From the NCBI GenBank assembly GCA_963697895.1, contig OY969100.1, positions 896,001-960,000 on the forward strand: DNA of 64,000 nucleotides, read 5' to 3'. The position numbers were made by a program, and so were the translations under genes. The notes beneath the pieces were generated by a model. That model did no database searches. It was not told the origin of the DNA and was given only the letters and a program-made list of their open reading frames with translations. Numbering within the stretch: the first letter of the stretch is position 1; each line of letters begins with the position of its first letter. Shown piece after piece: positions 43,128 to 50,464 of this stretch. This DNA comes from an uncultured Methanomicrobiales archaeon (GTDB taxonomy: Archaea > Halobacteriota > Methanomicrobia > Methanomicrobiales > Methanospirillaceae).

Positions 43128-43242
43128 AAGGAAATGAACATTCACCAGGGGACCATTGGATAAGGGCGATCGTGCGAAACTTGAAGGGAGATTTTCGTGG
43201 GACGGGAAGAGCTGAATGCGGCATGATCCCGGGGGGACAGGG

Positions 43243-44081
43243 ATGATCGGCGCCGGCGGGTACCCGACAGCGGGCAGTTTGACCGGGAATACGAAACGGA
43301 CCCGAAAATCAGTCCCCGCAATAACGGGAAAGGTGTACCTGGTCGGGTCAGGCCCCGGCGGTCTGGCCCACATGACGCTCCGGGCACAGGACGTGATCCG
43401 GGAGGCGGACGTGATCCTGTACGACCAGCTCCCGGGCGACGAGATCCTCGCGAGCCTGCCGGAGACGGCAGAGCGGATCGACTGCGGTAAGTTCGGAGGC
43501 AGGCACACCCGGGAACAGGAGGAGATCGAGGCCCTGATGGTCAGACGTGCGGCCGAAGGGAAGACGGTTGTCCGCCTGAAGGGAGGCGACCCCTTTGTCT
43601 TCGGTCGCGGGGGGAAGAACTCGAGGTGCTCCGTAAACACCGGATCCCCGTCGAACTTGTCCCGGGGGTGTCGAGTGCGATCGCGGTTCCCGGATCGGTC
43701 GGGATCCCGCTCACGCACCGGAAGTACGCATCCCAGGTCACGATCCTCACCGGCCACGAGGATCCGGCAAAGCCGGAATCCGCCCTGGACTGGGAACTCC
43801 TCGCCCGTGGCCGGGGGACGATCGTCATCCTCATGGGGGTGAAGAACCTCCCGCAGATCGCCGCCTCCCTCCTCAGGTACGGAAAAGACCCGGATACCCC
43901 GGTCGCGATCATCGAGCGGGGGATGCGGCCCGACCGGCGGGTGACCACGGGGCCGCTCTCCGGGATCGGGCGGATCGCGGAGGAAAAACAGGTCAAACCT
44001 CCCGCGGTCATCGTGATCGGCGGCGTGGTGAACCTTTACGATGAGTCCGCACCCGATCTTATCCCCTTCTCTCCCGAGTGA
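43243..44081 (+). CDS. cobA: Uroporphyrinogen-III C-methyltransferase, interrupted by a -1 frameshift in a G-run at 43609-43614
   Basis: GKVYLVGSGPG...VVRLKGGDPFVFGRGG continues as EELEVL...VPGVSSA..P...GIPLTHR...ILMG only if the G6 run is G7. Start uncertain. Confidence 0.88.
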
Positions 44082-44212: not shown

Positions 44213-44392
44213 ATGGATAAGAAGGTAAAAAACAATATCAGTGTCGTATCATTCATCATCGGGTTCATCCTGATCCTTATGCAGGACTTCAGCCGGTTGC
44301 AGACGATCGATGTAGGCTTCAGCTGGCCGTGGGCGGTCATGTTCTATGTCGGGCTTCTCCTGATCCTGGTCGGGTTCCTGCTCCGGGGATAA
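44213..44392 (+). CDS. 59-aa two-TM small membrane protein
   Basis: MDKKVKNNISVVSFIIGFILILMQDFSRLQTIDVGFSWPWAVMFYVGLLLILVGFLLRG*. RBS GAGAGG, TATA-like ATTATAA at about 44157-44163 and a T-tract after. Not in the ORF track. Confidence 0.75.
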   Translation: MDKKVKNNISVVSFIIGFILILMQDFSRLQTIDVGFSWPWAVMFYVGLLLILVGFLLRG

Positions 44393-44659
44393 CCCTAATC
44401 CCGATATCTGTCTTTTTTCCCTGTTTGCGGTTCAAGAATATTCGATCATCCGAACCATTTCCGCTCATAAGCCGATTTTTTGCTTCAGAGCCGGAAGAGC
44501 CGACTAAATATCAGATTGTGAGATCATCTTTCCTCTGAGATATCCCTTCCAAAATGTACTGCGCACGAGAAGATATCCAAGGGAATCATGCCATCCCGAC
44601 CCCACAAACCTGCTCATCGTATAAAAATATATATGCATGAAACTGCATCTCCTTCTGGT

Positions 44660-45148
44660 ATGCAAGACTATGTGACGTTAAAGGTGAAGGTGAGAGCCTT
44701 CCCGAGCAAAGGGCGGGCCCGGTTACACGAGTCCGTTCTTCCCGAATTAGCGGTTAAAGAAGGCGAAAGCCTCTCTCTCATGAAATATCCGCAGGTCTCC
44801 GATGACAAGACCAAGCCGGTATCGGTCACGGCGTACGGGGACAAGCAGGTGGGGAAGGGAGTGATTATGTTAAGCCCCGAGGACATCGCCGCTCTCGGCG
44901 TTGCGGAGGGTGATACTATCGCCGTGAAACGGAAGGTGCCGCTCACCGAGAAGATCACGAAGAAAGCCGCCCCCACGGGTACCGCGGTCAAGGAAGACGC
45001 TGTCAAGGCGGGTGCTGCGGTCAAGGGAGGGGCAGTCAAGGCAGGTACCGCCGTCAAGACAGGAGCAGTCAAGGCGGGGAAGGCCGTCGAAAAAGGGGCA
45101 AAAGACGTCTCCGCGAAGGTCAAGCCCCCCAAAGAAGAGAAGAAATGA
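44660..45148 (+). CDS. Stand-alone Cdc48/VAT/NSF N-terminal double-psi-barrel-like domain with an Ala/Lys 11-mer repeat tail
   Basis: Two internally similar halves, GRARLHESVLPELAVKEGESLSL and GVIMLSPEDIAALGVAEGDTIAVKR, match the G(D/E)-box symmetry of double-psi barrels. No AAA domain. Confidence 0.7.
   Translation: MQDYVTLKVKVRAFPSKGRARLHESVLPELAVKEGESLSLMKYPQVSDDKTKPVSVTAYGDKQVGKGVIMLSPEDIAALGVAEGDTIAVKRKVPLTEKITKKAAPTGTAVKEDAVKAGAAVKGGAVKAGTAVKTGAVKAGKAVEKGAKDVSAKVKPPKEEKK
44981..45100 (+). repeat. 33-bp (11-aa) tandem repeat, about 3.6 copies, in coding sequence
   Basis: TAVKEDAVKAG / AAVKGGAVKAG / TAVKTGAVKAG / KAVEKGA, starting at 44981, 45014, 45047 and 45080. Confidence 0.85.
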
Positions 45149-45162
45149 AGGGGATCTGACCT

Positions 45163-45576
45163 GTGGCGAACGAAACGACGATCGTGACCTCCACCTCGCC
45201 CTACTGGACCTGGTTCGAGACGGTGTTCTGGATCATCATCCTGGTCATCATCCTGGTCATCATCTACTACATCATCAGGGAGATCCGGCAATGGAGCGTT
45301 ACACCCAAGCTGGCACAGATCGACCTCGAGAAGGAGAAGCTGAACCTGATGAAACTGGAGATGGCCCAGCGGGGCACTCCCTTCTTCCGGGTCTCTCCCG
45401 AGAAGCTCGGGGAGATCAAGGACCTTGCCGACGAGAATGTCGCGCTCGAGACCGATATCTTCGCGCAACACAGTGCGGTGGACAAGCGGATCGAGCGGCT
45501 GGAGAATAAGGTGAAACTGACCAAACTCGACCGCATGGTGGAAAAGATCAAGGATGAAGAGAGAAAGATCGGGTGA
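45163..45576 (+). CDS. Single-pass membrane coiled-coil protein
   Basis: GTG start, TM (VFWIIILVIILVIIYYII) and heptad-rich C-terminus (DKRIERLENKVKLTKLDRMVEKI). Confidence 0.8.
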   Translation: MANETTIVTSTSPYWTWFETVFWIIILVIILVIIYYIIREIRQWSVTPKLAQIDLEKEKLNLMKLEMAQRGTPFFRVSPEKLGEIKDLADENVALETDIFAQHSAVDKRIERLENKVKLTKLDRMVEKIKDEERKIG

Positions 45577-45893
45577 ATCAGATGACCGAAACAGAAACAG
45601 CAACAGAACAGACGGCCAAAAAATCATCCTTCACGAGCTCGGTGAAGGCAGTACCTGCTACTGTCGATTCATGGCTCCCGACGATGGACAAGAACCTTGA
45701 CAAGTACTTCGATTCCCATATGGCCGCTATCATCGAGGAATGGGGACTGGTCACGGAACCCTTCCTGGATGAACTCGAGCACCGGCTGGCAGTCGTCCAC
45801 ACCGACCTCCTGAAGCTGGAGAAGGGCCGGACCCGGCTGGAGAAGAGAGCGGAATACCTCGACGCCGGGATCCGCGAGCTGGAGGGACAGTAA
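45573..45893 (+). CDS. Coiled-coil protein, paralog 1 (YFD..IEEW.L motif)
   Basis: MDKNLDKYFDSHMAAIIEEWGLVTEPFLDELEHRL...LEKRAEYLDAGIRELE. GTGA overlap with the upstream gene. Confidence 0.8.
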   Translation: MNQMTETETATEQTAKKSSFTSSVKAVPATVDSWLPTMDKNLDKYFDSHMAAIIEEWGLVTEPFLDELEHRLAVVHTDLLKLEKGRTRLEKRAEYLDAGIRELEGQ

Positions 45894-45914
45894 TGGTCGG
45901 CACGGACAGACTAC

Positions 45915-46118
45915 ATGAACAAGTACCTGGACCGGAGGATGAAGGTCCTCATCGAGGAATGGGATCTGGGTACGAAAAACGACCTTGGTAACTTTGAGGA
46001 CCGTCTTGTCGCGGTCGAAGAGGGGACCCGGGAGATCGAAGCCTTCGAGCTGAACGCGGATGTCAGGATGGACGAACTGGAAGCACGCCTGTACAGACTC
46101 AAGGAGGCGAATAAATGA
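45915..46118 (+). CDS. Coiled-coil protein, paralog 2
   Basis: MNKYLDRRMKVLIEEWDLGTKNDLGNFEDRL...MDELEARLYRLKE. The true start may be ATG 45893 (TAATG overlap) with a 1-nt indel. Confidence 0.78.
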   Translation: MNKYLDRRMKVLIEEWDLGTKNDLGNFEDRLVAVEEGTREIEAFELNADVRMDELEARLYRLKEANK

Positions 46119-46456
46119 CCCCACTCGAGGGATTCCTGGTCTTCCTCATCATCGTGATCATCGCATTCCTGATCTATTACTATTTCCGGGGCTCATCCGG
46201 GAAGGTATCCCTCGGCCGGCCGATCGAGAGCCGGGTGGACGAGTACCTTGACCGGCGGTTCGAGATGATGATCGATGAATGGTCGCTCACCGACCGGACA
46301 CGGGTGAACTCGTTCCGCGAATCGAAGGGAAAATTCCTTCTCGATGATGAAACACGGGTTGCCTCCCTGAAAGAGTTCAAAGACGGGATGAGTGAGAACC
46401 TGTCCCGGATGGAGGAGCGCCTGAATGCTCTTGAAACCCAAATCGACAAAAAATGA
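46115..46456 (+). CDS. Membrane-anchored coiled-coil protein, paralog 3
   Basis: N-terminal TM, then VDEYLDRRFEMMIDEWSLT...LSRMEERLNALETQI. ATGA overlap. Confidence 0.82.
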   Translation: MTPLEGFLVFLIIVIIAFLIYYYFRGSSGKVSLGRPIESRVDEYLDRRFEMMIDEWSLTDRTRVNSFRESKGKFLLDDETRVASLKEFKDGMSENLSRMEERLNALETQIDKK

Positions 46457-46748
46457 ACGGGCCAAACCCCGGGAGGAGCAGGAGTTCTTCTCCCGGGTCA
46501 AGGGGGATATCACCACCATCCGTGAGCAGGGAACTCCCCCGGAGAAAGATACCGGCAGCTTCTCCCGGTTCCGGTGCGATCTCTGCAACGGTACGTTCCC
46601 GCTCACCGAGCTGAAGCAGTGCACCCTCTGCGGGAGGTGGGCCTGCTCCTCCTGCTGGACAACGGAATATTATATCTGCAACTCCTGCAGCGGCATCGTC
46701 AGGCTACACCTGATTCCCGCCCAGCAACCGGGGAAACCCCGGAATTGA
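46425..46748 (+). CDS. 8-Cys zinc-finger protein (FYVE/Rab-effector-like spacing)
   Basis: Cx2C-x11-Cx2CG-x3-Cx2C-x7-Cx2C (CDLC..CTLCGRWACSSC..CNSC). GGAGG upstream and a T7 tract at about 46752. Confidence 0.8.
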   Translation: MLLKPKSTKNERAKPREEQEFFSRVKGDITTIREQGTPPEKDTGSFSRFRCDLCNGTFPLTELKQCTLCGRWACSSCWTTEYYICNSCSGIVRLHLIPAQQPGKPRN

Positions 46749-46916
46749 TCCTTTTTTTACCTATAAAAATCCACAGAACCCGGATATTTTTTTTGTTTGC
46801 GTTCGCCGGGGTACCGAAATCTACCTGATAAATCCAAAAAAATATTTTGTGCATGCATTGTTTCTCCCCGTGATGTTTTTATTGCGTCCGGGAACCAAAC
46901 TGCCCGGAGGGTACGA

Positions 46917-49689: not shown

Positions 49690-50313
49690 TCACCAGTTCT
49701 TCCGGTAGGGGTCGAGATCTCCCTGCAAGGGAATCTCTTCTCCGGGAATCGACCAAGATTGTTCCCTTCGCCAGAGCAGGAACGACCCGACCAACGCGAC
49801 GATTCCCGCACCCACGAGGAATATCCCAAGCAGCCGGATGATGAAGATACCCGTGAACTCCGCATGAAAGAAGATCAGGATACCGAGCGCGGCAAGGAAC
49901 AGCCCCCCGATGATCGAAAGGATCCGTCTCGCCGGGGATCCGCCCTGCAAAATCGCCGTGAATACCATCCCGAGCCCGCCGATCAGGAACACCAGGGCGA
50001 CGATCACCGCGAGAAAAGCCCCGATCAGGGAAGGGTTTGTAAAAGAGACAATGCCAAGGATGATTGCACAGATCCCGAGTATCAGGGGCACCGCCGCGAA
50101 CCAGGTCCCTCCGCGGGAGAGGGAGAACGCACCGACAAAAAGCGCGATCCCGATGAGAAAGACGATCGCCCCGAACAGGTAGATGATCAGCCGGAGAGAG
50201 CTCTCCGGGAAGAAGAGGAACAGGCTCCCGATGAGGATGCTGGCGAGCCCGAGACCCAGCGGGAGTTTCCAGGAGCCGAGGACTCCGTTGCGCGAAACCC
50301 AGTATACAGGCAT
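49690..50313 (-). CDS. HdeD/DUF308 membrane protein
   Basis: Six TMs with repeated G....G.....P hairpins. Confidence 0.82.
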   Translation of the reverse strand: MPVYWVSRNGVLGSWKLPLGLGLASILIGSLFLFFPESSLRLIIYLFGAIVFLIGIALFVGAFSLSRGGTWFAAVPLILGICAIILGIVSFTNPSLIGAFLAVIVALVFLIGGLGMVFTAILQGGSPARRILSIIGGLFLAALGILIFFHAEFTGIFIIRLLGIFLVGAGIVALVGSFLLWRREQSWSIPGEEIPLQGDLDPYRKNW

Positions 50314-50464
50314 AGGGGAAGTATCTGCCCTTTTATCCAGATAAGGGTTACAGGTCAATTCCGCCGGATCTCCCCGATTCACGGTACAATGATCTGCAGT
50401 TCCCGGACAGCACCTTCCCGGGAAGTTCCATATCGGTAAATATTCCGCCCACCCACCCGTAGGT

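Follow-up and report, generated by a model that had tools for sequence, protein, structure and literature searches.

The subject of this work is a cluster of six small genes, g1 to g6, found in a 64,000-nucleotide stretch (the window) of the genome of an uncultured Methanomicrobiales archaeon of the family Methanospirillaceae (assembly GCA_963697895.1, contig OY969100.1, positions 896,001 to 960,000 of the forward strand). The six open reading frames (ORFs) are co-directional and abut or overlap one another (Table 1), with intergenic distances from g1 to g6 of +14, −4, +21, −4 and −32 nt. They code for a small barrel protein, four short coiled-coil proteins, two of which carry a predicted membrane anchor, and a zinc finger protein. 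An earlier note on this DNA, made from its letters alone, had described the cluster as a single operon and likened it to a minimal membrane-remodelling module. Our analyses uphold the operon and the functional linkage of its genes, which very likely form one functional module, and suggest that the six products probably also associate physically.

Table 1. Genes and putative expression signals of the six-gene cluster (positions in the window).
Feature	Position	Strand	Description	Details
TATA-like element	44620..44634	+	A/T-rich, putative archaeal operon promoter	sequence TATAAAAATATATAT, 26–40 nt 5' of the g1 ATG
g1	44660..45148	+	Stand-alone double-psi beta-barrel of Cdc48/p97/VAT-N type (modelled) followed by an 11-mer repeat tail	162 aa
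g2	45163..45576	+	Predicted N-terminal single transmembrane segment and cytoplasmic coiled coil	137 aa, GTG start
g3	45573..45893	+	Soluble coiled coil, paralogous to g4 and g5	106 aa, GTG start; alternative ATG at 45582
g4	45915..46118	+	Minimal copy of the Y-[LF]-D...E-W-x-L core, with coiled coil	67 aa
g5	46115..46456	+	N-terminal transmembrane segment, core common to g3 and g4, coiled coil	113 aa
g6	46425..46748	+	Short helix, 8-Cys binuclear zinc finger, C-terminal helix	107 aa
Two T-runs	46752..46758 and 46787..46794	+	Putative archaeal terminator	sequence, 3' of the g6 stop

The gene block is conserved far beyond the window. In 20 loci positive for the g6 finger, spread over genera and belonging to three families of the order Methanomicrobiales, g1 to g6 occur in the same order and on the same strand without exception (20/20), inside flanks that are unrelated to one another; such a six-gene block is far above chance. 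The junctions between the genes are kept as well. Median gaps over these loci are +16, +2, +17, −4 and −32 nt, the ATGA overlap of g4 and g5 seen in the window recurs in 14 of the 20, and g5 and g6 overlap by 23–50 nt in all of them (32 nt in the window, where the g3 start also overlaps the g2 stop in the letters GTGA). Within the order the module is unevenly distributed. The finger family is present in 33 of 121 sampled genomes, with 20/22 in family f1, 8/22 in f4, 3/20 in f2, none in f3 (0/12) or f5 (0/22), and 1/22 in f6, where the match is weak (21.9 bits, below the cut-off). All 18 genomes of the order that match the profile of g3–g5 are also finger-positive, and two others (G053 and G091) have neither. 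In a search of 401 genomes of the phylum, the strong finger matches (88–131 bits) number 29 and are confined to this order; the remaining matches, of 21–32 bits, lie in small ORFs. No constant neighbour accompanies the six genes in the 87 of 136 listed flanking ORFs, from 19 of the 20 loci, that were searched against Pfam, and none of these ORFs belongs to the E1, E2, Ubl, JAB, Cdc48, FtsZ, sepF, cdp or PspA families.

Joint action of the six products is supported most strongly by three unrelated metagenome contigs with a GC content of 40–43% (L145–L147). On L147 every one of the six families is present, all in the same orientation and arranged 6-1-4-5-2-3 (finger, barrel, short coiled coil, transmembrane-core protein, g2-like protein and coiled coil), and this arrangement is partly present on L146 and L145. 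The L147 matches are at E 1e-30 for the finger A2 (61.8 bits against PF14445), E 2e-19 for the barrel A1, E 3e-16 for A6 and E 2e-15 for A3. Gene content has thus outlived a complete reshuffling of gene order. The pairs g2–g3 and g4–g5 are adjacent in both arrangements, and g6 adjoins g1 on L147, while these two genes stand at opposite ends of the operon in the window; the preserved blocks suggest g2–g3, g4–g5 and g6–g1 as likely contacts. The permuted module is followed on its own strand (L147:5501-6668) by a small ORF with a CxxC...CxxC pattern and no Pfam match, a PRC-barrel gene (E 1.5e-9) and an LSM gene, and then by an Hsp20 gene.

A much reduced version exists in the Methanobacteriaceae. 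The g5 family is rare, its profile retrieving only 86 matches at E≤1e-3 among 1.84 billion representatives. In a set of 80 Methanobacteriaceae loci, kept from 108 relatives, a g5-like ORF is present in 79 and is directly preceded on the same strand by a g2-like gene in 77, with a median gap of 8 nt. The g5-like protein combines a transmembrane segment with a 7-residue-periodic linker made of Gly/Lys/Ser/Glu repeats and the core shared by g3–g5. No relative of g1 or g6 lies within 8 kb of the pair in any of the loci (0/80), and five whole Methanobacteriaceae genomes gave no g1 match and only 20–22-bit g6 matches situated elsewhere. At one locus that was scanned (L070) the pair stands beside a divergently oriented M24 peptidase gene, and ORFs similar to it in size and sequence, as judged by eye, occur at seven other loci. 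The permuted six-family module and this two-gene core are both new. No description of the operon was found in the literature searched, which excludes the 2011 Prok-RING_2 paper, subscription papers and supplements, and the available portions of PMC11188069, PMC10120694 and PMC11354881 contain no mention of it.

Putative expression signals frame the cluster in the window. The TATA-rich stretch that had been reported ahead of g1 is present, and in most of the 20 related loci, as judged by eye, g1 is preceded by a similar A/T-rich element at a distance of 22–40 nt. The T-tract reported after the last gene corresponds to two T-runs; a run of at least five T within 70 nt of the g6 stop was seen in 11 of 18 related loci checked. 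A scan for sigma-70 promoters and hairpin terminators, which is unsuited to an archaeon, returned background counts. A longer version of g1 starting at 44588 was considered and is unlikely, since the N-termini of orthologs align with the methionine at 44660 and the TATA-like element would fall inside the extension.

The g1 protein comprises a barrel (residues 1 to about 100) and a Lys/Ala/Gly-rich tail (residues about 101–162). Its match to the Pfam family CDC48_N (PF02359) stays below the cut-off (31.4 bits against 35.1; E 2.2e-7) and covers residues 58–93 only, while many of its close homologs carry a precomputed PF02359 match. An AlphaFold2 (AF2) model built with 20 orthologs has predicted local distance difference test (pLDDT) scores of about 90 in the barrel and below 50 in the tail, which is modelled as disordered. 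Foldseek aligned this model to the N-domains of p97, Cdc48 and VAT (E 1.3e-7 to 1e-6, root-mean-square deviation 1.4–1.9 Å over 87–94 columns) and to the isolated archaeal VCP barrels 7dg9, 7dg7 and 7dbo (TMt 0.80–0.86), and the g1 family profile matches Cdc48-derived designed barrels at E 1e-6. The predicted structure therefore confirms the stand-alone double-psi beta-barrel of Cdc48/p97-N type that the earlier note had recognised. Residues 1 to about 95 superpose on p97, plant CDC48A and the archaeal VCP barrels, but g1 has the Nn barrel only: it lacks the Nc beta-clam subdomain and the AAA+ D1 and D2 domains, stands alone and bears a repeat tail instead. The g1 profile left the Cdc48 genes of the five Methanobacteriaceae genomes unmatched at E≤0.01. 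Some g1 homologs are mislabelled in databases as FwdD or selenocysteine dehydrogenase.

The 11-mer Ala/Lys tail proposed for g1 is also borne out. Over 20 orthologous tails, hydrophobic residues recur 1.8-fold above expectation at lag 4, 1.8-fold at lag 7, 3.57-fold at lag 11 and 3.14-fold at lag 22, a periodicity that, at the level of sequence, is the signature of 11-mer amphipathic helices. Through this tail the g1 profile matches apolipoprotein A-IV (E 3.7e-4) and apolipophorin-III (E 0.29). The tail resembles these two proteins, as well as LEA group 3 proteins and alpha-synuclein, in periodicity and in its K/A/G/E-rich composition; the likeness is compositional and periodic rather than demonstrated homology, and tail length ranges from 20 to 87 residues across the orthologs. 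At its very end, 15 of 20 g1 orthologs (loci L031–L050) terminate in [DE]-L (KDL, KEL, DEL, DDL or NDL), a possible docking motif; the window protein ends in EEKK, and relatives of equal length with 93% identity to it likewise have no [DE]-L end. One ortholog, of 245 aa (genome G111, L037:2934-3671), has a TrkA_C ligand-binding domain after the repeat tail (E 2.6e-9).

At the other end of the operon, the g6 finger occupies residues about 46–97 with the pattern CxxC-x11-CxxC-x4-CxxC-x7-CxxC. Its eight cysteines (C51, C54, C66, C69, C74, C77, C85 and C88), which had been noticed before, and a GRW motif are fully conserved across the 18 aligned sequences. The protein matches the Pfam family Prok-RING_2 (PF14445) nearly from end to end (profile positions 1–55 of 56; E 2e-26, 92.3 bits, cut-off 22.4), a family reportedly named by Burroughs, Iyer and Aravind in 2011 in a comparative genomics study and carrying a name without a tested function. 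Neither the all-cysteine ligands of g6 nor the four residues between C69 and C74 fit the RING consensus, which is C3HC4 with 1–3 residues between ligands 4 and 5. The AF2 model of g6 (pLDDT 83.6) retrieved nothing at E≤0.001 with Foldseek, where FYVE domains nonetheless head the list. VIA-align, which is independent of Foldseek, returned FYVE or FYVE-related fingers in all of its top 12 rows (Z 4.1–5.9), led by RUFY (2yw8; Z 5.9, root-mean-square deviation 1.9 Å over 51 residues) and including endofin (5.8), Hrs (5.5), RIM (5.2), EEA1 (5.0), melanophilin (4.9) and Rubicon (4.8). PHD fingers scored about 2.8–3.0, the RING/IBR entry 1wim 2.6 and the Slp4 finger deposited as 'RING' 3.5; all these Z values are below 8, and values that low can mirror a common arrangement.

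The earlier proposal of a FYVE-like finger consequently holds for the fold and fails for family membership. With the FYVE and Rab-effector fingers g6 shares the CxxCG-x3-CxxC spacing and a C-terminal helix, and it resembles FYVE_2 in its helix-finger-helix layout (E 0.06 for the g6 profile against melanophilin). By contrast, its Pfam scores are far below the cut-offs (15.4 bits against 27.8 for FYVE, PF01363; 15.1 against 27.2, E 0.026, for FYVE_2) and its C6–C7 spacer has only 7 residues. FYVE domains carry the phosphoinositide-binding motifs WxxD, R(R/K)HHCR and RVC, and none of the three is found in the g6 alignment, where SFSRxxCDLC, ELRQCxLCGRW and YYxCxSC stand in their place. We conclude that g6 has a cross-braced binuclear finger that belongs to Prok-RING_2 and is FYVE-like in shape, without being a canonical FYVE or RING domain. 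Its apparently greater structural proximity to FYVE-type fingers, together with the lack of ubiquitin-type genes in the flanking ORFs scanned, weakens the assumption that g6 is an E3 ligase. Genome searches with UQ_con and Prok-E2_A gave no match, a weak result since the controls were silent too; other Prok-E2 families and ThiF/SAMP were unsearched. Fused forms of the finger (229–2000 aa) were not found either, which is weak evidence. What the cluster presents is the neighbourhood of a prokaryotic RING-like finger in which the place of a ubiquitin-type partner is taken by a barrel and coiled-coil anchors.

Between barrel and finger, g2 to g5 supply anchors and coiled coils. The N-terminal location of both membrane segments agrees with the earlier description: the KD19 maximum reaches 3.12 in g2 (residues 20–38) and 2.68 in g5 (about residues 6–24). 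Each segment is flanked by no K/R on its N side and three on its C side, which, under the positive-inside rule, would place the coiled coils in the cytoplasm and the N-termini outside. Heptad periodicity appears as a 1.43-fold enrichment at lag 7 in g2 and as 1.86-fold and 1.62-fold hydrophobic enrichments at lags 7 and 14 in g3. In the proteins g3, g4 and g5 a common Y-[LF]-D...E-W-x-L core precedes the heptads, and profile comparison with hhalign (g3 against g4, 98.3%, E 1.4e-14; g5 against g4, 98.0%, E 2.3e-13) confirms from their sequences that they are paralogous, as had been proposed. The value for g2 against g5 is only 66%, and we therefore treat g2 as a separate family. Exactly three copies of the core exist in the genome, all inside the cluster. 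In a tree of the core domain g3, g4 and g5 form one group each (support 91/90, 92/95 and 97/89), so that the triplication is older than the split of the three Methanomicrobiales families; the deep forks of this tree are unresolved and the three paralogs on L147 cannot be assigned to g3, g4 or g5.

Known families shed limited light on these proteins. At E≤1, Pfam returned no enzyme family for the six window proteins, in agreement with the earlier remark that catalytic motifs are missing, and nothing above cut-off was found in NCBIfam, nor any defence match with PADLOC; named homologs, save the mislabelled ones of g1, are all 'hypothetical protein'. Profile searches of the PDB with g2, g3 and g5 retrieved generic or designed coiled coils only. 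Weak matches connect g5 with PspB (18.8 bits, cut-off 25.6; 21 residues, E 0.0017; one of 20 g5 orthologs also matches) and g2 with PspB (E 0.025) and EzrA (E 0.009, far below the cut-off). PspB and PspC, working with PspA, are comparable as small bitopic proteins whose N-terminal transmembrane segment is followed by a cytoplasmic, leucine-zipper-like helix holding soluble helical partners, but the g5 and g2 matches span 21–34 residues and stay below the cut-offs and no PspA/IM30 gene occurs in the cluster or in the flanks scanned. The Phasin model (PF05597, cut-off 28.8 bits) matches no window protein at E≤1, and it matches five of 20 g3 orthologs (best E 6.6e-4) and three of seven Methanobacteriaceae relatives (best E 1.8e-6). 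It also hits six of 14 control genomes, only one of them above the cut-off, and nothing in this genome at E≤0.1; because of the control matches it looks non-specific, and we read its matches as coiled-coil noise with a common 'W-x-L-x-T...L..R...LE' flavour. In the ESM Atlas, g3 retrieved archaeal clusters of its own family and a faint PHA_synth_III_E (PhaE) lead at 0.77, and g5 nothing at 0.9.

Taken together, these data lead us to favour, with a probability of roughly 0.45, a membrane-anchored coiled-coil scaffold that carries two small recognition modules. The products would come together at the cytoplasmic side of the membrane, into which g2 and g5 would be inserted with a short N-terminus outside, and the coiled coils of these two anchors, joined by the soluble g3 and g4, would build a hetero-oligomeric helical scaffold in which the three preserved gene pairs may correspond to sub-pairs of proteins. 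The g1 barrel, with its peptide- or adaptor-binding fold, and the g6 finger would dock onto this scaffold as non-enzymatic recognition modules. The repeat tail of g1, or in the Methanobacteriaceae the repeat linker of the anchor itself, might lie along the lipid surface in the manner of apolipoprotein and LEA-type lipid-surface helices. The g2–g5 pair would represent the ancient core, since it alone is kept in the Methanobacteriaceae, and g1, g3, g4 and g6 would be later additions. As for the role, a platform that organises or maintains the membrane surface and recruits or holds client proteins there is the leading candidate, a tentative suggestion based on analogy.

Several points weigh against this scaffold reading. 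Its function is argued by analogy, and the coiled-coil fold gives no functional clue, as the PDB matches are all generic or designed. The g1 tail is modelled as disordered, and its lipid binding is deduced from periodicity and composition. The missing g1 and g6 in the Methanobacteriaceae version may mean that these two proteins serve a separate, added function, the patchy distribution within the order implies that the module is dispensable, and the weak Phasin and PspB matches could point elsewhere.

The same barrel and finger could instead belong to a membrane-bound adaptor of the Cdc48/VAT-proteasome system, loosely comparable to endoplasmic-reticulum-associated degradation, in which the coiled-coil anchors hand membrane proteins to the unfoldase. 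In this proposal g1 would be a substrate barrel of Ufd1 or Cdc48 N-domain type and g6 a RING-like or Npl4-like finger, in parallel to the pair Ufd1/Npl4. The structural neighbours of g1, the placement of g6 in a prokaryotic RING family by Pfam and the presence of Cdc48-type ATPases in the genome all speak for it. Yet the flanking ORFs scanned include no Cdc48, E1, E2, Ubl or JAB gene, and their only ATPase is an AAA gene close to a single locus; g1 lacks the very Nc subdomain with which p97 forms its cofactor cleft; the g6 model scores higher with FYVE fingers (Z up to 5.9) than with RING/IBR fingers (2.6); and the Methanobacteriaceae core has neither protein. The silent E2 searches add little, and we hold this adaptor to be unlikely. 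The architecture of small anchored and soluble coiled coils also recalls division or cytoskeleton accessory proteins such as EzrA, ZapB and FtsB/FtsL, which would here tether or regulate FtsZ, SepF or CdpB at the membrane. Apart from the weak EzrA match of g2, the PRC-barrel gene just downstream of the permuted module fits this idea, as PRC-barrel proteins have a role in archaeal division and often adjoin Cdc48 genes, according to the available text of PMC10120694. That neighbour is confined to one contig, however, the Methanomicrobiales flanking ORFs scanned contain no ftsZ, sepF or cdp, and many genomes of the same order lack the module, which would be odd for a core part of the divisome; a division role thus appears improbable.

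Two further possibilities concern the coiled coils and repeats themselves. The six genes might be merely co-transcribed and code for separate small stress or hydrophilin-like proteins that form no single complex, as the low-complexity repeats in the tail of g1 and in the Methanobacteriaceae linker, and the Hsp20 and LEA_2 genes near some copies, would allow. We give this low odds, because a gene content kept through a full reordering and tight overlaps in all 20 loci are typical of subunits made in fixed ratio. Four coiled-coil proteins, two of them membrane-anchored, next to an NSF/Cdc48-N-like barrel had also inspired the idea of a SNARE/NSF-like fusion or tethering machine, or of a phasin-like inclusion-body coat, to which the Phasin matches among g3 orthologs and Methanobacteriaceae relatives and the faint PhaE lead would lend something. 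This idea found no support in the comparison with known families. None of the six proteins matches SNARE, synaptobrevin, BMFP/UbiK, PspA/IM30 or Snf7 (ESCRT-III) models of Pfam at E≤1, the membrane segments are N-terminal and not tail anchors, no ATPase is linked to the module, and the Phasin model looks non-specific. Moreover, PhaC_N has no match in the genome (93.85% complete; the Caulobacter control was positive, and class III PhaC/PhaE were unsearched). Fusion or coating is accordingly very improbable, and the module is probably neither a ubiquitin-type ligase nor a fusion machine.

A bolder version, to which we give little credence, would make the cluster a self-contained membrane-remodelling or protein-sorting machine in euryarchaeal methanogens, far from the Asgard archaea. 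It would unite a FYVE-like finger reading lipids or partners, an adaptor barrel of Cdc48-N/Ufd1 type whose 11-mer helix senses curvature, and four coiled-coil proteins, two anchored and two soluble, zipping into a defined bundle, with g2 and g5 as an ancient minimal engine. If true, these methanogens would possess a prokaryotic counterpart of the trafficking modules of eukaryotes, whether ancestral to them or convergent.

The surroundings of the cluster in the window differ from those of its relatives. Haem/sirohaem genes (aminotransferase-, deaminase- and TP_methylase-type ORFs) lie upstream and an alpha/beta hydrolase gene downstream, and these neighbours are not kept beside the cluster elsewhere. 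A low-GC stretch between the haem genes and the cluster holds a 59-aa ORF with two hydrophobic segments (44213-44392), which has no Pfam match and no tblastn match in the 20 related loci. Within the flank families found by the Pfam search, DUF308 occurs at four loci, VTT/DedA and META at two each and an AAA ATPase at one. The VTT/DedA gene is directly downstream of the cluster in two of the 20 loci, and a DUF308 (HdeD-like) membrane-protein gene also lies 3 kb downstream in the window (49690-50382, minus strand); the proximity of DUF308 and VTT/DedA genes (loci L033, L038, L039 and L049) may reflect chance or a loose membrane-related link. The TP_methylase gene, of uroporphyrinogen methyltransferase type (43216-44081), is apparently split over two frames: the ORF 43216-43842 has a good TP_methylase start and then turns into low-complexity sequence, and the ORF 43626-44081 corresponds to profile positions 102–209. 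A second Cdc48-type gene (locus L149, genome G000:C1:184824-188069) also reads in different frames, all on the minus strand: its N-domain is encoded in 1177-1773, an AAA domain in 380-1192 and more AAA sequence within the frame 168-1529. It is either a broken gene or a product of indel errors in the 2.09 Mb single-contig assembly. Together with the split TP_methylase, it hints at frameshift errors in the assembly.

If the six products indeed form one membrane platform, they would constitute a compact, enzyme-free archaeal system combining a Cdc48-N-type barrel, a FYVE/RING-type finger and short coiled coils, that is, the kinds of modules used in eukaryotic trafficking and quality control. The stand-alone double-psi barrel could reveal ligands of an ancient fold with no ATPase attached, and the finger calls for a correction of its label, since the 'prokaryotic RING' of Pfam appears structurally nearer to FYVE-type fingers. 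Two major orders of methanogens carry the system, and the membrane biology of these organisms has received hardly any study; the two-gene minimal version is found in the Methanobacteriaceae, the family that includes human and animal gut methanogens.

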